Source: a virus (Duplodnaviria > Heunggongvirae > Uroviricota > Caudoviricetes). Taken from it: a stretch of 43,652 bases of DNA. This document shows positions 9,088 to 39,847 of this stretch, in pieces. Both the position numbers and the translations under genes were made by a program. The notes beneath the pieces are model-generated. The model was not told the origin of the DNA. It saw only the letters and a program-made list of their open reading frames with translations, and ran no database searches. Each line of letters starts with the position of its first letter. Positions within the stretch are counted from its first letter, which is position 1. The stretch lies in IMG/VR virus record IMGVR_UViG_2617270938_000005, positions 1-43,652 of that record. The stretch is one strand, 5' to 3'.

Positions 9088-10121
9088 TCTACATCTCCGA
9101 CTTTGTCCAAAGTGCCTTTTGCCAATAGTTCTTTGCCACCTTTAGCCAGGCAAAGCAGGTCCATATACCACGCCTGCCCGCGAGTATCGCCAGTATAGTC
9201 AATGCTGCCGACAATGTAATCACCATCGGTATTGATTGCCGCCAGCTGCGACCCGGGAAGCCCATCGACATAGATGTTACCGTCTGTGGTACTTTCGCCT
9301 AAGATACCTGGTGACTGGCCAACCTGGTCATTACCGAGAGCCTGACGATATACAGAGGCCTGATCCAGCCTGATAAGCCCACCAAGCTTAATATTCGGGT
9401 TTATCAGACAGCGCACATTTACCCCGGCGCCCATCGTCTGCTGAGGCATACCGATCAGGCCCGTATTGGCGTTCAGTACAATCGCTTCCTGTATGTACTT
9501 ATCATCAGGAACAATATGCACCTGGTTGTTTTCGTACCACCAATTAGCCTTACATTGCCCTGCAAGGCTGTACATCAGGCGTCCAGTGTTCTGATAAATA
9601 GTGCGGCCGCGGGGGAATACAGTTGGACCAAAATCCGGCCTGCTTCCCTCTGTAATGCCATAAGGGCTAAGGGACTGCATACCCAAATCAAACAGGTCAG
9701 CATGCTTCCAGCCTGCCGATACTGTCGTTTTCACGCTGGCGTTGAGATGCCCCTCCCAGCCATCAATACACTGGATGAGCACCCAACTATCGGTGACGTT
9801 ATCTTTTCCGGTAACGGTAAAGCGAATATCACCGTTAAAGATGATCCCCACATTTTTATCAGGATAGTTACCACTGCTGTCTGCTGTGCCGTTATACCCG
9901 GCAATAGCCCTTACACGAGTAAACTCTTTACCCATGATCCGGTTTTGTGTCTCCGGCGACAGATTGTAGATTTTGAAGTTACCCACGAATCCGTTAAAGA
10001 TAGTCGCGGGCATCTTCTGGATATTAAACGTCACCTTAAAATCCGACAGCGAAACACCATCACCCTTGTCGTCAATAAGCTGCAGCTCAAAGTGCCGCAT
10101 CCAGTTCTGAGACATAATCAC
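9084..10121 (-). CDS. tail/baseplate hub protein (putative)
   Basis: 345-aa ORF in baseplate position downstream of tape measure region. Confidence 0.4.
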   Translation of the reverse strand: MIMSQNWMRHFELQLIDDKGDGVSLSDFKVTFNIQKMPATIFNGFVGNFKIYNLSPETQNRIMGKEFTRVRAIAGYNGTADSSGNYPDKNVGIIFNGDIRFTVTGKDNVTDSWVLIQCIDGWEGHLNASVKTTVSAGWKHADLFDLGMQSLSPYGITEGSRPDFGPTVFPRGRTIYQNTGRLMYSLAGQCKANWWYENNQVHIVPDDKYIQEAIVLNANTGLIGMPQQTMGAGVNVRCLINPNIKLGGLIRLDQASVYRQALGNDQVGQSPGILGESTTDGNIYVDGLPGSQLAAINTDGDYIVGSIDYTGDTRGQAWYMDLLCLAKGGKELLAKGTLDKVGDVE

Positions 10122-10420
10122 TCCGTTACTGCGTAGAGATGGCTTTTAATGCCGAGGTCGGTTTGGGTTGGATTATCATTTGCTGGGTCGTCGCAATTGA
10201 CATAGAGCGAAAAGCCAAGCCCGAGATAGCGATACTGAGCCAGCAGGTTGGCGCCGGTGATAAGCGGGATCCCCTTTATCAGGTCGGCCCCGGTACTGTC
10301 CATAATATCCAGACACCAGAAAGCAGCACGCCAGGTGACAGCCATTTGCAGGCTTTGACCTGCAACAGATATGGAGAATCGCTGGTTTTCTGGTGATAGA
10401 GGGATTTCTGAAACAGCCAT
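10118..10420 (-). CDS. hypothetical tail protein
   Basis: 100-aa ORF translationally coupled within tail module. Confidence 0.35.
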   Translation of the reverse strand: MAVSEIPLSPENQRFSISVAGQSLQMAVTWRAAFWCLDIMDSTGADLIKGIPLITGANLLAQYRYLGLGFSLYVNCDDPANDNPTQTDLGIKSHLYAVTE

Positions 10421-11020
10421 TTAACCTCCCGAGATGAAACCGACAAACCGGCTTATTAGCGACTCATCTTTCGGAGTCGGTGTCTTTACTCCTGAATTTT
10501 GCACCGCTGACGTGTTTACCCCCTCTTTCATGTTTTCCTTCGCTGCCACGCTGACTGTCTGCGTTTGGCTGGTGATTATTTCCCTCAGTGTAACTGTCGC
10601 CATCAGTACGTTTTCGCTGGTACGTTCGGTCGTCACATCCAGAGAGCGGATCACCATATTGGTATAAAGACGCTTCCCGGTGGTTACATCAAGCAACTGC
10701 CTTTCCTGCTGCATTTTGAGCAGCTCAGCATAGACTTCCTTAGGCCCCATGTTGTTAAGGGGCGTAGACAGCCCGATGCCTGCTGTATCATAAAAATCCA
10801 GCAAGGAACCACCACCAGCAAAGCCTATCTCCATAACGACTTCTGACGGGCGCCGATATGCATGGTCTGCAATGAACCCTGTTCCTGCGCTTGTAGGCCT
10901 TTCAACTGGATGCTCTGTCACCTCCAGAGCATCGCTATGACGCTCTGAAACCACCACATCGGGTATCATCAGACCAATACGGCGGCTCCGCTGCTGGAAA
11001 AGGGTTGAAAGAATATCCAT
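10421..11020 (-). CDS. tail protein downstream of tape measure (DNA-circularisation-like position)
   Basis: 199-aa ORF abutting tape measure stop. Confidence 0.35.
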   Translation of the reverse strand: MDILSTLFQQRSRRIGLMIPDVVVSERHSDALEVTEHPVERPTSAGTGFIADHAYRRPSEVVMEIGFAGGGSLLDFYDTAGIGLSTPLNNMGPKEVYAELLKMQQERQLLDVTTGKRLYTNMVIRSLDVTTERTSENVLMATVTLREIITSQTQTVSVAAKENMKEGVNTSAVQNSGVKTPTPKDESLISRFVGFISGG

Positions 11021-13020
11021 CAGCTCGGCCCCCTGGTTAGTTGCTGGGTAGCGCGTGCATTAACGTTGCCCTGGCTTTCAGAGACGATTTTCCCCGCCTC
11101 TCTCGGATCGCTGACACCAGAAATGTTGATAACGGTATTCTGGTTCAATGTCGCGCCAGCCCCCGGCATATTGCTCAACACCTTCGGGATATATTGCCTG
11201 GTTTCCTGCGGCATCAGCGCCATGCCGTATTTCTGCACGTTACCGATCCCCCAGTTATACGAGGCCAGAGCTTTACCCAGATCTCCGCCGTTCTTCTGCA
11301 GGAGCATCGATAGATATCGCGCCGCCGCTTCCGCTGACTTGATCGGGTCGAAGACATCATTCCCGCGTAGCCCCATATCCCGAGCGGTGCCAGGCATAAA
11401 CTGGAACATTCCCTGTGCGCCGGCACCGGATACAGCGAACTGATTTCCCCCTGATTCAGTGATAGCGACACTTCGCAGAAGACCAGAAGGAAGGTTATAC
11501 ATAGCCTCCAGCTTACCCATCATCGGGGCCATCCATCCAAGCAACTGAGCGCCAGCTTTTGAAGGTGACGGTCGTTTCACTGATTGTCCGTACTGCGTGG
11601 CATCACCATTCCACCAGTCAACAGCCTTATCCCATAACCCCTGCCCGACAGAGGCGGCACCCTGAATAATCGGGCTATCACTCCACGCTGCGGCTGCGCC
11701 TTTAAGCGAATCCCATGCGCCTGAGAAATCGCCACTAATAACCTTTCGCAGAGCGTCCACCAGCGAACCAAGGATTTTGATTGAACTGCGGACGCTTTCG
11801 ATAATCTGGTCAAACAGCCATTTGCCATTAAATTTCGACGTATCGATATTAATGAATTCAAGGAATCGCTTACCCAGATCGACGATGGCAGAGCCAAGGT
11901 CTTTAACCTTCAGATAGATGCCACTAAAGTCCTTACTCAGGCTGGCAAAAGCCTTTTGGGCATATTTGATACCCGGCTCCCATTTCCCCCAGTCTATGAG
12001 CGACTGGCCGCCTTCTTTCCACGTACGGTAATCGTCGTAGAGACCTATCAGCGCGGCTCCCAGCATAAAGACACGGCCAATGGGCGACATCGCAAAGGCG
12101 GTATTCAGAAGGCGCCATGCAACCATCAATGCGCCAAATACCTCAATAACTTGTCTGGTTTCGGTACCGAGTGATTTCCACCAGTTGATAATGTCCCCTG
12201 TGAGCTGTATCAACCGATAAACCACCCGGCCAATGATTTCACCAAACCACAGGACACCTTTGACACCAGCAGTGATAGCCCCTTCAATTTTCGGGAAATT
12301 CTCCATGATCTGACGGCGCAGGCGGTCCAGCGAGCCCGTCAGACCATCGGCCAGACTGGAACCGATTTTGTCCCGCGCCATACCGGCCATTTCGCCGAGG
12401 GAACGGAGTGAGGTCATAAACCTGTTAGACGCAGCAGCAGCCTGTTCAGGATTGAACCCGATGGCCTTTTTCATCGCGTTGTACTGGCCCATGTACTCAC
12501 CAATACCACGGCGCATTGCCATCAGGGTATTTTCATCAATACCCAGCATCTGTGCGTACTGGTTTGCACGGTAGTACGGCATGCTGCTAAGACGCTGGCC
12601 GACGCCGGTAAAGATCGTCGCCATATCCCGCATGTTGCCGCTGGCATCACGCGTTTGAACCCCCAGCCGGTTCAGGAAACCCTCAGCGCCGGGATTGTTA
12701 CGCATGAACCTGGCAAGATTTTCGAGAGAGCCGCGGGCCCCGTCGACACTGCCGCCAACCTGACTAACCGCATACCCAATCTGCTTAATGCCCTCCACCG
12801 TCGCGCCTGTGCGCTGAGAGGCCCAGTACAGGTCGTCGAGACCGCTGGCAATTTTCGCGGTGAATGCAACGACGGAAAGTGCCGCCGCCTCAACTTTGAC
12901 GCCCAGTTCAATCGCTTTAAGCGTTGTCCCGGCAACGACGGCATCGAATTTTCTGGCGCCAGCCTCATCAACTTTGAACCCAAGCGAGATCAGAAAGTCC
13001 TTGAGCGTTTCAGCGTTCAT
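11020..13020 (-). CDS. tail tape measure protein with C-terminal lytic transglycosylase (SLT) domain
   Basis: 666-aa ORF after frameshifted chaperone; C-terminal AITESGGN...GMFQFMPGTARDMG...YNWG is SLT-like. Confidence 0.8.
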   Translation of the reverse strand: MNAETLKDFLISLGFKVDEAGARKFDAVVAGTTLKAIELGVKVEAAALSVVAFTAKIASGLDDLYWASQRTGATVEGIKQIGYAVSQVGGSVDGARGSLENLARFMRNNPGAEGFLNRLGVQTRDASGNMRDMATIFTGVGQRLSSMPYYRANQYAQMLGIDENTLMAMRRGIGEYMGQYNAMKKAIGFNPEQAAAASNRFMTSLRSLGEMAGMARDKIGSSLADGLTGSLDRLRRQIMENFPKIEGAITAGVKGVLWFGEIIGRVVYRLIQLTGDIINWWKSLGTETRQVIEVFGALMVAWRLLNTAFAMSPIGRVFMLGAALIGLYDDYRTWKEGGQSLIDWGKWEPGIKYAQKAFASLSKDFSGIYLKVKDLGSAIVDLGKRFLEFINIDTSKFNGKWLFDQIIESVRSSIKILGSLVDALRKVISGDFSGAWDSLKGAAAAWSDSPIIQGAASVGQGLWDKAVDWWNGDATQYGQSVKRPSPSKAGAQLLGWMAPMMGKLEAMYNLPSGLLRSVAITESGGNQFAVSGAGAQGMFQFMPGTARDMGLRGNDVFDPIKSAEAAARYLSMLLQKNGGDLGKALASYNWGIGNVQKYGMALMPQETRQYIPKVLSNMPGAGATLNQNTVINISGVSDPREAGKIVSESQGNVNARATQQLTRGPS

Positions 13021-13623
13021 TAGCCTCTCTCCATTTCGCTATACGGTTTTCGTTATCGGCTTTCAGGTCCAGCCAGTCATTCATACGGGCAATATCAGCC
13101 AGGTCTACTGATCCATCTTTCAGGGCGGTGTAAGGGATAAGCCCGGCATCCACCGGGCGCATCAGGAAATCCTCACCTTCTGGCATGGATTCCAGGACAG
13201 GACCTATGGCTGGGTAGGCGTCCCGCTGCCGGGGAGTTCTTTCAAAAAATTTCCCAGGCTGTCGGCGACCACCCGCGCCACCAGCTGCAGCATCGTGAAC
13301 AGGTCGATATCGTCGAACATCAGCGCGCCCTGATCGAATACCTTCGTCCAGCCCTTTTCGTGCTGGCGGGAAACGACGCTCAGACACGGATGAATCACCG
13401 CGTTAACGTCCTCGTCCGGCAGCGCGGCCAGCGTATCGGCAATTTTCGGCAGTACGCTTTCCAGCACTGCACCAGAGTTACCCGCAGCGGCCTGCGCTTT
13501 CAGCGTGGAAAATTCGCTAACGAGCCCAGCCAGCACCGGCAGCAGCTTACGGCTTACCTTCAGTTGCTGGAATACGTCGAGTTTGGCGGTTCGATAATTA
13601 ACGCCTTTGATTTCAAATTCCAT
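13010..13623 (-). CDS. tail assembly chaperone -1 frameshift fusion product (GT-like)
   Basis: Slippery run GGGAAATTTTTTG (plus 13243-13255) near the end of the G-like ORF; the -1 frame continues as FFERTPRQRD... to a stop at 13010. Confidence 0.55.
13204..13623 (-). CDS. tail assembly chaperone (G-like)
   Basis: 139-aa ORF between tube and tape measure genes. Confidence 0.6.
   Translation of the reverse strand: MEFEIKGVNYRTAKLDVFQQLKVSRKLLPVLAGLVSEFSTLKAQAAAGNSGAVLESVLPKIADTLAALPDEDVNAVIHPCLSVVSRQHEKGWTKVFDQGALMFDDIDLFTMLQLVARVVADSLGNFLKELPGSGTPTQP
13243..13255 (-). other. programmed -1 ribosomal frameshift slippery site
   Basis: Overlapping X_XXY_YYZ heptamers G_GGA_AAT, A_AAT_TTT, T_TTT_TTG in zero frame. 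Confidence 0.55.
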
Positions 13624-13626
13624 CCG

Positions 13627-14070
13627 TTAAAACTCCCCCAGCAGCTGGTCAATCTTGCCGCAGTCAAAGACCCAGGAAACCGTATTGCCGACTTTGGCGT
13701 TAGCGTGATCGGGTTGCTTCTGGAAAGCACAAGAACGCGCTGTAGTGGTATCACCTGATACTTTGTTGCGAATGACGATGACGTTATTGCCCCACGTCGC
13801 CGAGGACAGGCTCTGTGCGTTGTACATCAGCGAGAGCTTTTTGTTTACCGGGGAGGTTTTCAGCAAAGTTACCGTGATAGTGCCGCTCTTACCGGCGTGC
13901 AGGCTGTGCATCACCTCACCATCGGCGCCGACGGTCATGGTGTTTTTTGCCTCGGTCATCGCAACCGTAATACCTTCTTCGGAGTTCGCCGAGCCGTAGC
14001 CCAGATCGATACTGCCGGTTGGGCCCGTCAGGGATGCCGAGACGTCAATAAAACTATAGGTTCCGCTCAT
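13627..14070 (-). CDS. tail tube protein (putative)
   Basis: 147-aa ORF between sheath-like gene and chaperone, as in contractile tails. Confidence 0.5.
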   Translation of the reverse strand: MSGTYSFIDVSASLTGPTGSIDLGYGSANSEEGITVAMTEAKNTMTVGADGEVMHSLHAGKSGTITVTLLKTSPVNKKLSLMYNAQSLSSATWGNNVIVIRNKVSGDTTTARSCAFQKQPDHANAKVGNTVSWVFDCGKIDQLLGEF

Positions 14071-14079
14071 GGTCGCTCC

Positions 14080-15225
14080 TTATCGCACCACATTGATCTG
14101 CACGTCGGCATAGTGAATGGCACCCGCCAGTTTGATCGCCGCCTGAATCACCGGCGACTTACGCGCTTCCCTGTCGGACTGCGCCTGGTTTTCTACTGAA
14201 TCGGCGTGGACGTAGTAACCCTTGGTCAGTGTGTCACCTGATTCAATCTGGCCGATCGGGCCGCCATTCCATACACCCGGAGCCACCAGGCCGTTATTAA
14301 CCGCCTGATCCAGTGAGGCTTCGACGTTGGTCATTAACCGGGTTACGCCTGCGTCGGTCTGCGGGATTTTGGTGGCCGAGGTGTAAAGCAGGTTATAGAG
14401 ATTGGTCTGAACGTAGTTCTGCAACCAGTCGAGCCCGTGGCGCTCGTCGAAGAAGTCACCGTTCGCCATGACACCCTGTTGCAGGATCGCCGTGTCGTTG
14501 GCGTAGTACACGAATACATTGCAGTTTTTTGCATCAAGTGCCGATGCCTGGCTGACTGTCAGTGTTTCATACCCGACACCCGGCTCCTGCTTAAACTTGA
14601 GCGTAATCGCGGTATTACTGCCATTGAAATTAACCGTGAATGCCCGGCCAAATGCAGATAACGCAGCGTATTTATTACCCGATGAATACTGAATAAAACT
14701 GCGTGAATATCCGGCGGTTTTCAGTTTTGATGCCAAATCATCGCTGGATGCAGTCTGCAGGCATTTCTCATCGCTTGTCGTAATCGCCAGAATACGGCTT
14801 ACAGAAGAGGATTCGATCGCCGCAGCCACTTTCAGCCAGTCTGCATCCGGAATATCTTCATCGTCTGCAATCCCCAGTCCATACCATGAAGTATAATCGA
14901 GCATGGCATTCACAGCCTGCTCCAGCGTCTCAGGCGTGGCCTGTTCGCTGTCTCCCTTCGTTTTCACCCAACGACCAACAAAAACCTCCTGAGGTTTCGG
15001 TGATTGTGAGAAAAACACCTGCGCAGCCTTATATTCTGGTGATTCCACGCCAAAATCTTTTCCAATATCTTCCGCGGCAGAATAACGGCGAATGCGCTCA
15101 CTTACCGGAATGATTGTGGACGGGCCGAGAATGAGTAATGCACCAAAATTTCGCCCTGATGCTGCACGCGGCGACATGATCACATCAACATTAACAACGT
15201 TTGATACAGGCAAGCCCTGTGCCAT
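14080..15225 (-). CDS. tail sheath protein (putative)
   Basis: 381-aa ORF immediately upstream of tube gene. Confidence 0.5.
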
Positions 15226-35718: not shown

Positions 35719-35864
35719 CCAAATATCGAAGCGGCAAACAAAAATCGCTGGGGTTTGACGATTGGTGTAACTGGATAGATAGATACGGAACTTGGTGGGA
35801 TAAATAACAGGTAACTTAAGCGTATTTACTTTCGCAGCAAACCACTTATTTGAGAGGAATTAAT

Positions 35865-36488
35865 ATGTCATCAATCCGCTTAACTACGAGAATGAAAGAG
35901 AAAATCGCTCGTAACGCTTTAATTAAGTCTGGGGTTTTCACTGAACTTGAAGAAGTAACAAAGTTAAAGAACCAGCTTGCACTTGACGCCAGAGTTATTG
36001 CGTTTGGCGGTAAAAAGAAAACTGAGGAAGTGGATCAGTTATCATCCAAGTTGGTAGCTATAAGTGAAGAACTTGAAAAGATGGGATGTTCATTTTACTC
36101 ATACGATGTTAGTTCTACTTCAATTTATCTGACTGTATCTGGCAGAAGGGTTGGATGGCATTCATATGGGAAAGACGGCAACGGCGAAGATATATTGCTC
36201 CCTACTCCGACAAAAGATAAATGCATGTTTGACGCAGAGCACGAAATAACAAAAAGGTTTGATGAAATCTGCGCATTGCAACAAAAACTTGAAGTCAGGA
36301 AAAAGGATATCGAATCAAATGTATGGGCTGCTTTGAACTCAGTCACAACAGTTAAGCGACTTATTGAAGTTTGGCCTGAAAGCAAAGAATTGCTACCAGA
36401 AGAAGCAGATAAAGCAAGTACAGCACTTCCTGCTTTACGGGTAGAAGATTTGAATAAGATGATTGGACTTCCTTCCGAGGCCGCATAG
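35865..36488 (+). CDS. hypothetical protein
   Basis: 207-aa ORF with GAGAGG RBS. Confidence 0.4.
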   Translation: MSSIRLTTRMKEKIARNALIKSGVFTELEEVTKLKNQLALDARVIAFGGKKKTEEVDQLSSKLVAISEELEKMGCSFYSYDVSSTSIYLTVSGRRVGWHSYGKDGNGEDILLPTPTKDKCMFDAEHEITKRFDEICALQQKLEVRKKDIESNVWAALNSVTTVKRLIEVWPESKELLPEEADKASTALPALRVEDLNKMIGLPSEAA

Positions 36489-36620
36489 TCGGCCTTTACT
36501 TTTGGCATAAACAACAGAATAAACACTGCACTGTGTATTCATTCCAACGAGTGAATACACGGAGCAATGTCGCTCGTAACTAAACAGGAGCCGACTTGTT
36601 CTGATTATTGGAAATCTTCT

Positions 36621-36648
36621 TTGCCCTCCAGTGTGAGGGCAATTTTTT
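36621..36648 (+). terminator. rho-independent terminator (tL-like) inside pL operon
   Basis: TTGCCCTC-CAGTGT-GAGGGCAA followed by TTTTTT; next gene starts 13 nt later. Confidence 0.7.
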
Positions 36649-36660
36649 GACGGAGGATAT

Positions 36661-37629
36661 ATGAGTGAAGTAACAGATTTAGTTGTTATTGAAAAATCAA
36701 ATGCAATGACTGTATTTCAGTCTGCCGACCAGATTGAAGAAATTCTCCAAAAGGTTGAACGTGAAGTTATGTCCTTTGTGCCTGATGTTACAACGGCAAA
36801 GGGCAGAAAGGAGATCGCTTCTCTGGCGTATAAAGTTGCGCAGACGAAAACATATCTCGATGGTCTTGCCAAAGACCTTGTTGCTGAACTGAAGGAAATT
36901 CCAAAGCTAATTGATGCTAACCGTAAGACAGTGCGTGATCGCCTTGATGAGCTGAAAGCCAAGGCGCGCCAGCCTCTTACTGATTATGAGGAAGAACAGG
37001 CGAGGATTAAAGCCGAAGAAGAAGCTAAGGCAGCAGCTGAAGCTCTCGCAAAGCAAATTGAGTCTGACCATGAAATAGCGATTTTGATGGATCGCGAATT
37101 TGACCGCCAAAGAGAAGAGGCAAGACTCAAAGCTGAGCAGGAAAAGCGAGAGCATGAAGAACGCTTAAAAAGAGAAGCTGAAGAGAAAGCCAGAGCTGAA
37201 GCCGAAGCAAAGGCAAAAGCCGAAATTGAAGCAGCAGCAAGGCGAGAAGCAGAAGCTAAGGCCGCAGCGGAACGTGCAGAGCGTGAACGCATTGAAGCCG
37301 AGCAACGAGCACAGCGCGAAGCAAAAGAGGCAGCAGGACGAGCTGAAAGAGAAAAGCATGCGGCAATTGAAGCAGAACGCCGTAAAGCACAGGAGGAGGC
37401 AGAACGAATCCGTCGCGAGGCTGAAGCAAAAGAGCAAGCCAGAATCGCAGAAGAAAAAAGAATCAAGGACGAAGAAGAGCGCAGAGCAAAGGATAAAGCT
37501 CACCGGAAAGAAGTAAATAACAAAATACTTGCTGACCTTATCAAGGTTGGCGCATCAGAAGATGTTGCTAAAAATATCATAATAGCCATCGCAAAAGGCG
37601 AAGTATTCGCAACAAAAATAACCTACTAA
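36661..37629 (+). CDS. hypothetical protein with long E/A/K/R-rich coiled-coil
   Basis: 322 aa; central region of AEAKA/EEAER-type charged repeats. Confidence 0.45.
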   Translation: MSEVTDLVVIEKSNAMTVFQSADQIEEILQKVEREVMSFVPDVTTAKGRKEIASLAYKVAQTKTYLDGLAKDLVAELKEIPKLIDANRKTVRDRLDELKAKARQPLTDYEEEQARIKAEEEAKAAAEALAKQIESDHEIAILMDREFDRQREEARLKAEQEKREHEERLKREAEEKARAEAEAKAKAEIEAAARREAEAKAAAERAERERIEAEQRAQREAKEAAGRAEREKHAAIEAERRKAQEEAERIRREAEAKEQARIAEEKRIKDEEERRAKDKAHRKEVNNKILADLIKVGASEDVAKNIIIAIAKGEVFATKITY

Positions 37630-39367: not shown

Positions 39368-39847
39368 ATGAAAATCTGCTCAAGATGCCATCAACAGAAG
39401 GAAGAAAGGGACTTTCAAATCAGAAGAGCATCCAGAGATGGATTAACTGCCGCTTGCCGGGCTTGCCTGGCTGAATACGACAAAGAACGCGCTGGATTGC
39501 CACATCGAGTATCAGCAAGGAGAGAATATCAATCATCGGAACGCGGAAGAGAACGGTGTAACGCAGCCAAAAAGCGGTTCATTCAGAGCAACCCATGGAA
39601 AAGAAAAGCCCACATCATTGTGGGTAATTTTTTGCGCGACGGTAAGCTAATCCGACCACCACAATGTGAGTGCTGCGGATCAGAATGTAAACCACAGGCG
39701 CACCACTGCGACTACAGCAAACCAACCGATGTGATGTGGCTCTGCAAGTCATGTCATGCCGAGTGGCACAAACATAACAAACCTATCTACCCAGACGAGG
39801 AACCAGTAACTCTCCCCTTCCCTCGTCACGCTATTCACGCAATTTAA
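39368..39847 (+). CDS. HNH endonuclease-like protein
   Basis: Cys clusters and HHCDYSKP...WLCKSCHAEWH HNH-type motif. Confidence 0.5.
   Translation: MKICSRCHQQKEERDFQIRRASRDGLTAACRACLAEYDKERAGLPHRVSARREYQSSERGRERCNAAKKRFIQSNPWKRKAHIIVGNFLRDGKLIRPPQCECCGSECKPQAHHCDYSKPTDVMWLCKSCHAEWHKHNKPIYPDEEPVTLPFPRHAIHAI

Follow-up and report, generated by a model that had tools for sequence, protein, structure and literature searches.

A conserved slippery run in a phage tail assembly chaperone gene points to a programmed −1 frameshift of the G/GT type

The tail assembly chaperone gene analyzed here very probably gives rise to two proteins, the chaperone itself (G) and a longer fusion (GT) made by a programmed −1 frameshift on a slippery run. 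The gene lies in the window, which is the whole 43,652-nucleotide (nt) record IMGVR_UViG_2617270938_000005 of a Caudoviricetes virus. In tailed phages, a −1 shift on a slippery sequence yields a short and a long tail assembly chaperone from one gene. Because this is the textbook way of fixing the ratio of the two chaperones, the site adds no new principle. The frameshift site is real, strongly conserved, and ordinary, and the genome of a close relative, Klebsiella phage Mulock, already has it annotated; it is an instance of a known mechanism with minor annotation value.

Profile matches and positions of open reading frames (ORFs) give the minus-strand order of tail sheath, tail tube, tail assembly chaperone, overlapping −1 ORF, and tape measure. 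The tail sheath protein (381 amino acids, positions 14080 to 15225) matches Pfam DUF3383 (E217_gp31_N in newer Pfam; E = 4e-102) and phrog_205 “tail sheath” (E = 2.5e-134). The tail tube protein (147 aa, 13627 to 14070), which is encoded directly upstream of G, matches Pfam KPP10_Orf10 (formerly DUF3277, now Phage_Tube_PhiTE; E = 4.7e-63). Gene G (13204 to 13623, with its stop codon at 13204-13206) has a 139-aa zero-frame product that matches Pfam Phage_TAC_15 (PF21822, E = 7e-36) and phrog_1688; residues 6-131 of this protein align to positions 1-123 of the 127-position Phage_TAC_15 HMM with 124 bits (cut-off of 22). The tape measure protein (666 aa, 11020 to 13020) has a C-terminal SLT lytic transglycosylase domain (Pfam SLT, E = 5.5e-25) and matches phrog_2276 “tail length tape measure protein” (E = 1.5e-211).

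The overlapping ORF of 125 aa (13010-13387, minus strand) is offset from G by 2 nt, which is the −1 frame, and reads ...GKFFERTPRQRD.... Its portion from the slippery run onward is the −1-frame extension, or T part (13010 to 13243, minus strand), which re-reads the G at 13243, comprises 77 codons followed by a stop codon at 13010-13012, and translates as ERTPRQRDAYPAIGPVLESMPEGEDFLMRPVD...AKWREANER. An initial reading of the window, made from the sequence only, had proposed that the −1 frame continues exactly from the chaperone gene into this ORF, which ends at the start of the tape measure gene. The continuation is confirmed by the GKFFERTPRQRD stretch, and the end point is refined: because the T frame ends 11 nt past the tape-measure ATG (13020; T-frame end at 13010), it overlaps the start of that gene rather than abutting it.

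The slippery run is GGGAAATTTTTTG (13243 to 13255, minus strand). The zero frame crosses it as CTG GGA AAT TTT TTG, corresponding to L123, G124, N125, F126, and L127 of the 139 residues, and, therefore, its three overlapping X_XXY_YYZ heptamers, G_GGA_AAT (13255-13249), A_AAT_TTT (13252-13246), and T_TTT_TTG (13243 to 13249), are all in the phase required for tandem −1 slippage. This in-phase trio at codons 123-127 agrees with the sequence-only reading, which had located overlapping slippery heptamers at this minus-strand run. In-frame heptamers of the X_XXY_YYZ form occur 36 times in 12,191 codons (0.3%) of the window ORFs of at least 150 aa, and no second run of three overlapping heptamers was found among these ORFs. 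The distance from the run to the stop codon of G is 36 nt, the same value that PMC10885494 gives as the mean site-to-stop distance for the set of Xu et al. With respect to efficiency in Escherichia coli, PMC4066793 ranks H_HH.U_UU.Y heptamers, a class that includes A_AAU_UUU, among the most efficient; U_UU.U_UU.G is outside the class that Sharma et al. give there as most efficient, and G_GG.A_AA.U is outside the efficient V_VV.A_AA.R class. Given that the first and third heptamers fall outside the efficient E. coli classes, shift efficiency may be low, with some uncertainty as to which heptamer is actually used.

We compared the run across 148 related loci, which comprise 128 unique sequences and 41 lineages below 90% identity. 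All three heptamers occur in 108 of the unique sequences; T_TTT_TTN remains in frame in 126 of the 128 and is the sole heptamer in 10. Among the first 91 related loci, 89 share the 13-mer without any change, and the flanking DNA is just ~69% identical in the more distant relatives. T_TTT_TTN is kept from Enterobacterales as far as Sphingomonas and Pseudochelatococcus, whose G protein is 35% identical. Codon choice within the run is also constrained: Phe126 is encoded by TTT in 41/41 lineages (44% elsewhere in the same gene), Leu127 by TTG in 34/34 Leu codons (11% elsewhere), Asn125 by AAT in 33/33 (40% elsewhere), and Gly124 by GGA in 32/40 (7% elsewhere), and the third base of codon 125 is T in 41/41 lineages, although these counts overstate the number of independent events because the lineages share phylogeny. 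In the aligned sequences, the family-wide invariant is T_TTT_TTG/T/C, which indicates that T_TTT_TTG is the conserved core shift site. G_GGA_AAT is dispensable: 20 of the 128 unique sequences lack it, and several lineages (e.g., L035 and L066) lost it via synonymous Leu-codon changes. The T-run is absent from two distant loci (L140 and L141, Bryobacterales), both of which have a CCUUUUA site and a GC hairpin (−21 to −24 kcal/mol); among the related loci, a downstream hairpin is confined to these two.

The pattern of constraint changes at the run. Before the site, per-position entropy peaks at zero-frame position 3 (1.16-1.53, compared with 0.51-0.70 at position 2), and the stretch upstream of the run shows the zero-frame pattern only. 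After the site, the maximum moves to zero-frame position 2 (1.32), where the −1 frame has its wobble base, and the minimum lies at position 1 (0.87). Judged by these entropies, the zero frame is under protein-coding constraint up to the run and the −1 frame from there on. Across the 41 lineages, conservation of the −1 peptide FFARTPRQRD...LPDGEDFLMRPV...DGSVDLADIARMNDWLDLKADN begins at the run. Upstream of the run, the remainder of the 125-aa ORF (13256 to 13387, minus strand) is non-coding, being an open off-frame reading of G. In 23 of 126 unique relatives (e.g., L005, L009, and L011), the −1 frame is closed by a stop codon 1-5 codons ahead of the T-run, and in four of them (L096, L128, L132, and L135) this stop directly abuts TTT_TTT, in agreement with the earlier proposal that this upstream part is not an independent gene. 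The same reading had recognized the conserved G/GT arrangement, with which the gene order, the in-phase conserved run, and the frame-specific constraint all agree; each sequence-level prediction of the G/GT type (Xu, Hendrix & Duda 2004) that the analysis covered was borne out at the locus.

The predicted GT fusion has 204 aa and a mass of ~22 kDa. In it, the G fold (residues 1 to ~127) would be joined through ~20 flexible linker residues to a helical T domain, ~57 residues long, in which DUF6889 lies. The −1 extension matches Pfam DUF6889 (PF21829, E = 3e-20) with 72 bits (cut-off of 23.9) and phrog_4364, of “unknown function” (E = 2e-27). In AlphaFold models, for which the G and T parts were modeled separately, T residues 1-20 (13184 to 13243, minus strand) form a predicted flexible Pro/Arg-rich linker (pLDDT 47-59) that takes in the stretch overlapping the G tail (13207-13242); its motif FFARTPRQRD is conserved in the −1 frame despite the low pLDDT. 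T residues 21-77 (13013 to 13183, minus strand) form the predicted folded domain with DUF6889 (block-mean pLDDT 87-96), with helices at T residues 24-32, 38-43, and 48-75, the first of which spans the Met that the RefSeq annotation pipeline (PGAP) uses as a start (13162). In about half of the family, CTG replaces the ATG at 13162. A PDB sequence search with the fusion gave zero matches, and a Foldseek search with the T domain returned nothing meaningful and no solved structural relative.

The peptide expected at the junction depends on the heptamer. Slippage of both tRNAs on T_TTT_TTG would give ...VVADSLGNFL-ERTPR... and the peptide VVADSLGNFLER, and slippage on A_AAT_TTT or G_GGA_AAT would give ...SLGNFF-ERTPR... 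and the peptide VVADSLGNFFER. An exact look-up of the two window junctions and three possible Mulock junctions in the protein collection found none of them. Two assembly variants give a single ORF that carries both Pfam domains and has the predicted junction: one with an extra T (L148, encoding P0002) and P0136, for which two fewer Ts are inferred from its protein junction SLGNF-ERTP. Three other candidate domain fusions (P0001, P0040, and P0248) were rejected as indel or deletion artefacts or prophage remnants.

The site appears to act without RNA stimulators. The sequence-only reading had suggested looking for a stimulatory downstream RNA structure, and none emerged: folds of the window gave z = −0.64 (100 nt) and +0.27 (48 nt) with nothing stable, and the mean z across the 41 lineages is about 0 with nothing conserved. 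No Shine-Dalgarno (SD)-like element at dnaX-type spacing was seen in the upstream sequence. The stimulator-dependent class of bacterial −1 frameshifts (dnaX or IS3-IS911 type) is defined by a structured RNA element (hairpin or pseudoknot) located 5-9 nt past the heptamer, by an internal SD upstream of it, or by both, and the window site falls outside this class. G-T shifts of tailed phages require no stimulators (PMC5009743).

The downstream frame could instead be an independent gene for a 50-aa or 58-aa “DUF6889 family protein” with its own ATG (13162 or 13186), in which case the run would be incidental. PGAP does call a 50-aa CDS in E. coli, other records have 58-aa versions, and in the window GGUGAGGA, which forms an anti-SD duplex of −7.7 kcal/mol, stands ahead of the inner ATG at 13162. 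However, this SD-like element pairs equally well where the codon is not a start (−6.6 vs −6.3 kcal/mol) and is, therefore, a by-product of encoding D-G-E-D, and there is hardly any SD in front of the ATG at 13186 (−3.6 kcal/mol). No start codon of the −1 frame is conserved in the 41 lineages; the best alignment column is start-capable in just 20 and the MPEGE column in just 8. Conservation of the −1 peptide sets in at the run, which is ~28 residues before the inner Met, and this Met falls within the first predicted T-domain helix. The database calls range from 42 to 64 aa and are ragged, with at least 7 different N-termini, and an independent gene would leave the fixation of synonymous codons at the run unexplained. 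We rejected this gene as the main explanation on start conservation, SD energy, ragged N-termini, and the structure model, and consider it very improbable, though some independent initiation at the inner ATG is possible in the window’s own lineage. By the same comparisons, the downstream ORF has neither a conserved start of its own nor a selected SD, and protein-level selection is seen only from the shift site onward.

The same GT would also result from transcriptional slippage, with RNA polymerase adding one U at the T6 and the minority mRNA being translated normally. An added nucleotide in the mRNA and a −1 ribosomal slip are indistinguishable from sequence alone, the T6 or T7 homopolymer is the one family-wide conserved element, and one added T does yield a fusion ORF (L148). 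Programmed transcriptional slippage, however, is expected at a homopolymer of at least ~9 or, for shorter runs, next to a hairpin in the nascent RNA; efficient bacterial cases are documented at 9 A or T, and slippage is undetectable at T5C5 without such a hairpin (PMC5009743). The run here has 6 Ts, with a family maximum of 7, and the coding strand ahead of it shows neither a hairpin nor a terminator-like stem. Moreover, the fixed GGA (32/40) and AAT (33/33) codons build non-homopolymeric heptamers that are relevant only to tRNA re-pairing, and the identical heptamer of phage P2 is treated as a translational frameshift in PMC3091744. We regard transcriptional slippage as very improbable. A chance run or another T-rich element, such as an intrinsic terminator, combined with a −1 ORF that is a non-functional relic, has next to no probability. 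Two copies of the run with one mismatch (36637 and 39622, plus strand) do follow GC-rich hairpins and look terminator-like, but there is no such stem upstream of the run on the minus strand, which is the coding strand, and a terminator at the run was rejected. The exact 13-mer occurs once in the window, where shuffles give 0.10 expected matches with at most one mismatch, and the T domain has a protein sequence that is highly conserved across phyla, and it folds confidently. The chance, terminator, and relic readings are already effectively refuted.

Under programmed −1 frameshifting, we infer the following course of events from the sequence. The majority of ribosomes would terminate at the stop of G (13204) and release the 139-aa chaperone, and a minority would slip back 1 nt on G_GGA_AAT_TTT_TTG (13255-13243) and continue in the −1 frame to 13010, making the 204-aa GT. 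The run alone, without an RNA stimulator, would fix the low G:GT ratio. By analogy with lambda, the G parts would coat the tape measure protein and the T domain would recruit its putative partner, the tube subunit, and both G and GT would be missing from the virion. Beyond this, we tentatively consider a reading that is itself unlikely, in which the run is a tuned multi-site, structure-free cassette: phages of Enterobacterales would have stacked A_AAU_UUU and G_GGA_AAU on an ancestral U_UUU_UUG, offering the ribosome an opportunity to slip at each of several consecutive positions and thereby raising or buffering G:GT, and Bryobacterales would have reached the same output via the weaker CCUUUUA and a GC hairpin. 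If that were true, the chaperone family would be a natural series in which frameshift efficiency is set by site multiplicity or by RNA structure.

The main use of these results is in annotation. RefSeq (PGAP) calls the T part a stand-alone “DUF6889 family protein,” and many other NCBI records call it “NTP pyrophosphohydrolase.” The stand-alone call is spurious, and the stand-alone Pfam status of DUF6889 is contradicted, as the domain is the C-terminal part of the predicted frameshift product. Our comparisons indicate that DUF6889 is the T domain of the GT frameshift product in contractile tails of the E217/KPP10 type. In the literature library searched, neither DUF6889 (PF21829) nor Phage_TAC_15 (PF21822) is mentioned by any paper. 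Among 5,426 complete E. coli genomes, 231 contain a match to this type of locus, and in 51 of these the match covers 80% or more of the query. The comparisons offer a concrete correction to those who curate PGAP, Pfam, and PHROGs (phrog_4364), and experimenters have a defined junction peptide to seek, from a fusion of ~22 kDa as opposed to a stand-alone DUF6889 peptide of 5-6 kDa.

The closest known systems include the tail assembly chaperone of HK97 (PDB 2ob9), gpG/gpGT of lambda, E/E+E′ of P2, and the chaperone locus of Mulock. The window locus shares with lambda the position of the gene, a −1 shift near the 3′ end of G, and a fusion that has the N-terminus of G. The slippery heptamer of lambda is GGGAAAG, from which G_GGA_AAT of the window differs in the last base alone, and this lambda-like first heptamer is the dispensable one in the window’s family. 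Lambda has a non-contractile tail, and its proteins are not detectably homologous by sequence to those of the window. PMC5009743 describes the lambda shift as a low-level one without stimulators (Levin et al. 1993; Xu et al. 2004, 2013, 2014). P2, like the window locus, combines a contractile tail with a chaperone gene that precedes the tape measure gene, and for its −1 frameshift it uses TTTTTTG with no structure downstream (Christie et al. 2002, cited in PMC3091744). This heptamer is the core heptamer of the window’s family, to which the window lineage adds two further overlapping heptamers upstream. P2 and the window show no detectable sequence relationship, the window G being a Phage_TAC_15 protein and its T part DUF6889, and the products differ in length (91 aa for E and 142 aa for E+E′, compared with 139 and 204 aa). 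The nearest system is that of Mulock (CPT_Mulock_014 and CPT_Mulock_015, MN098327.1), an orthologous locus with 88% nucleotide identity over a 1.2-kb query and a G protein 92% identical to that of the window. The genome announcement of Mulock has no mention of the chaperone, and its annotation is computational only; the window differs from it in the sequence of the G tail and linker. Mulock has the same GGGAAATTTTTTG run in the same phase, its −1 extension likewise ends 11 nt inside the tape measure gene, and its proteins are annotated as “tape measure chaperone” (QFG06716.1) and “tape measure chaperone frameshift product” (QFG06717.1), the latter as a joined CDS whose span of 617 nt matches the reconstructed 205-aa fusion.

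On the minus strand, a tail sheath gene of the DUF3383/E217_gp31 type (14080-15225) is followed by a tail tube gene (KPP10_Orf10/DUF3277; 13627-14070), a 139-aa ORF (13204-13623), an overlapping 125-aa ORF (13010-13387), and the gene (11020-13020) for a tape measure protein of 666 aa that carries an SLT domain. The 139-aa ORF, G, encodes the tail assembly chaperone (Pfam Phage_TAC_15, E = 7e−36; phrog_1688, E = 1e−56), and the 125-aa ORF lies 2 nt out of register with it, in the −1 frame. Positions 13243-13255 read GGGAAATTTTTTG in reverse complement. Because the chaperone frame reads this run as CTG GGA AAT TTT TTG (L123-L127), it holds three overlapping heptamers (G_GGA_AAT, A_AAT_TTT, and T_TTT_TTG), all in X_XXY_YYZ phase. 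The exact 13-mer has a single copy in the window (0.10 matches expected by chance at ≤1 mismatch). Among the window's long ORFs, in-frame heptamers make up only 0.3% of codons, and no second triple overlap was found. The slippery heptamers that the sequence-only reading placed close to the chaperone's 3′ end are thus borne out. Its −1 frame does continue into the overlapping ORF, but does not end exactly at the tape measure start: the stop (13010-13012) lies 11 nt within that gene.

Similar stretches occur on the plus strand. At 36598-36663, GGGCAATTTTTTG, a copy of the run with one mismatch, lies 3′ of a hairpin (CCCTC-CAGTGT-GAGGG) and is followed by GGAGG and an ATG (36661); the arrangement resembles an intrinsic terminator separating an Nmad5-domain gene (35850-36488) from the gene after it. 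At 39606-39634, GGGTAATTTTTTG follows a hairpin (CCCAC-ATCATT-GTGGG) within a 159-aa ORF that has no Pfam match (39368-39847). Its codon phase matches that of the chaperone run (V-G-N-F-L, with in-frame T_TTT_TTG), and its −1 frame ends after 5 codons (FFARR-stop); this may be a terminator within a mis-called ORF, or a coincidence.

We compared 148 related loci from annotated phage and E. coli records, IMG/VR viral contigs, GTDB genomes (one per species), and one Logan contig, which yielded 128 unique sequences spanning G to its −1-frame extension, T, and 41 lineages below 90% G identity. The relatives reach Bryobacterales, Sphingomonas, and Pseudochelatococcus, where G identity is 35-45%. All three heptamers are found in 108 of the 128 unique sequences. 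Only G_GGA_AAT is lost in 8 (in L035 and L066 via synonymous CTG to CTT or CTA), T_TTT_TTG is the only heptamer in 6, and the remainder carry T_TTT_TTT (4), C_CCT_TTT (1), or no canonical heptamer (1). Given these counts, the family-wide invariant is in-phase T_TTT_TTN, present in 126/128.

Synonymous codons at the run are fixed far above their frequency in the rest of the gene. Across the 41 lineages, which share ancestry and are therefore not independent trials, Phe126 is always TTT (44% elsewhere), codon 125 always has T as its third base, Asn125 is AAT in 33/33 (40% elsewhere), Leu127 is TTG in 34/34 Leu codons (11% elsewhere), and Gly124 is GGA in 32/40 (7% elsewhere). The fixation holds even with flanking DNA ~69% identical. 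Records attributed to Flavobacteriia hosts (L005, Elizabethkingia phage EKP1; L114, a Chryseobacterium sp. 18061 contig) carry the module at ~70% nucleotide identity to enterobacterial phages with an identical slippery core, and may have been assigned to the wrong hosts or come from impure samples. In L116 (Enterobacter sp. R1(2018)), probably a decaying prophage, the run is intact and the −1 frame stops early (…ILRPARRRFSG-stop), truncating the T domain.

Coding constraint changes frame at the run. Upstream, the entropy profile is the usual one for the zero frame (position 3, 1.16-1.53; position 1, 0.63-0.99; position 2, 0.51-0.70). Over the 12 codons that follow the run, entropy is highest at zero-frame position 2 (1.32), the −1-frame wobble position, and lowest at position 1 (0.87), the −1-frame second position. 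The −1 translation is kept from the T-run onward (FFARTPRQRD...LPDGEDFLMRPV...DGSVDLADIARMNDWLDLKADN..RI..W), and the tail of G in the zero frame shows little conservation and is predicted to be disordered. Since a −1-frame stop lies 1-5 codons upstream of TTT_TTT in 23/126 sequences, the portion of the 125-aa ORF that precedes the run is not an independent gene, as the sequence-only reading had held. In L096, L128, L132, and L135 the stop abuts TTT_TTT, which pins the shift to that heptamer in those genomes.

A slip on T_TTT_TTG would give a 204-aa GT fusion with the junction ...VVADSLGNFL-ERTPR..., and a slip on either upstream heptamer would give ...GNFF-ERTPR.... According to Sharma et al. 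(PMC4066793), efficient E. coli classes include H_HH.U_UU.Y, hence A_AAU_UUU, and G_GG.A_AA.U and U_UU.U_UU.G fall outside them. For the window's lineage, A_AAT_TTT and T_TTT_TTG are both plausible shift sites, and G_GGA_AAT, which is evolutionarily dispensable, would be the weakest candidate. Some relatives differ in homopolymer length. L148:1896-1909 (Logan SRR23924998) has T7, versus T6 in its 97.7%-identical relative L008, and encodes a 213-aa protein (P0002) with both Pfam domains and the junction GNFF-AYTPYQ, as predicted. The single proteins P0136 (SLGNF-ERTP, a run shorter by two T) and P0255 also have both domains, with junctions implying T4. These variants may be constitutive-fusion mutants or sequencing errors; L148 and P0136 illustrate the fused reading and are not independent proof of it. 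P0248, a 108-aa E. coli protein, joins the T domain in one frame with a Pam3_gp18-like baseplate plug, a homologue of window 10118-10420, which implies deletion of the tape measure and Dit-like genes and thus a prophage remnant.

Slippage of RNA polymerase on the T run would make the identical protein, but we consider it very improbable. Such slippage has been described as efficient on stretches of 9 A or T, and on T5C5 none is detectable unless a nascent hairpin adjoins it (PMC5009743), whereas the run here is T6, T7 at most, and the coding strand has no terminator-like stem 5′ of it. The fixed GGA and AAT codons, moreover, make non-homopolymeric heptamers, which matter only to tRNA re-pairing. 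A stimulatory RNA structure, which the sequence-only reading suggested looking for, did not emerge 3′ of the site: folds of the window (z = −0.64 and +0.27) and of the 41 lineages (mean z ~0) gave none stable or conserved. The same is reported for lambda G-T (PMC5009743) and P2 E/E′ (PMC3091744). The distant Bryobacterales homologues L140 (1876-1950) and L141 (1918-1990) lack the T6 run and read GGG/GGC CCT TTT ATG at the site (L141 has C_CCT_TTT, L140 no canonical heptamer); a 5-6-nt spacer is followed by a GC-rich hairpin of 10-11 bp (−21 and −24 kcal/mol, z ~−2.5), found in no Enterobacterales lineage. These loci may have exchanged a structure-free shift site for a structure-assisted one.

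An alternative, which we consider very improbable, is that the downstream frame is a small gene with its own start, as in RefSeq, where PGAP calls a 50-aa "DUF6889 family protein" from MRPVD (ATG at 13162), and in records with a 58-aa version from MPEGE (13186). The evidence argues against this. Only 20/41 and 8/41 lineages, respectively, have a possible start (ATG, GTG, or TTG) in these columns, and the alignment offers no better one. The SD-like GGUGAGGA before 13162 pairs with the anti-SD just as well where the codon is CTT or CGC (−6.3 versus −6.6 kcal/mol), so it merely results from the coding of D-G-E-D; at 13186 an SD is nearly absent (−3.6 kcal/mol, versus −8.3 to −11.5 at neighbouring genuine starts). 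The 120 stand-alone database calls (42-64 aa, a few artefactual outliers aside) use at least 7 different start columns. AlphaFold models T as a ~20-residue low-confidence linker and a confident helical domain (pLDDT ~87-96), with PGAP's Met within the first helix (T residues 24-32). The T part (13013-13186, minus strand) is widely deposited as a stand-alone DUF6889 protein (P0121-P0135, P0150-P0243) and many NCBI records call it "NTP pyrophosphohydrolase", a name for which this analysis found no support and which looks like a propagated misannotation.

The conserved in-phase run, the fixed synonymous codons, and the switch of constraint to the −1 frame uphold the earlier G/GT assignment: the chaperone is very probably subject to programmed −1 ribosomal frameshifting, and every sequence-testable defining feature of the Xu-Hendrix-Duda G/GT arrangement is present. 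DUF6889 and phrog_4364 should accordingly be annotated as the T domain of the predicted frameshift product. The family also supplies a modest set of naturally varying shift sites, among them the two Bryobacterales loci with CCUUUUA and a hairpin in place of the T-run. The closest phage record, OZ035745.1 ("Wanchaivirus PDP110P2"), matches the query at 97.9% identity. HK106 and mEp234 are members of Wanchaivirus, which is placed in Hendrixvirinae. Despite that name, the sheath and tube encoded at this locus are of the E217/KPP10 contractile-tail type, so the record is either a mosaic genome or of doubtful genus assignment.

Our literature search, which included the genome announcement of Klebsiella phage Mulock (L001), found no paper mentioning a frameshift in this G/T family. 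Mulock shares 88% DNA identity, 92% G-protein identity, and the same 13-mer with the window. A third Mulock CDS named "tape measure chaperone" (CPT_Mulock_016, L001:2585-4205) is a homologue of the window's SLT-domain tape measure, and its name appears to be an annotation slip. Because Mulock carries a joined CDS, "tape measure chaperone frameshift product", the finding is already known in kind and, effectively, in the family; the shift site given for P2 in PMC3091744 is identical to the family-wide T_TTT_TTG.
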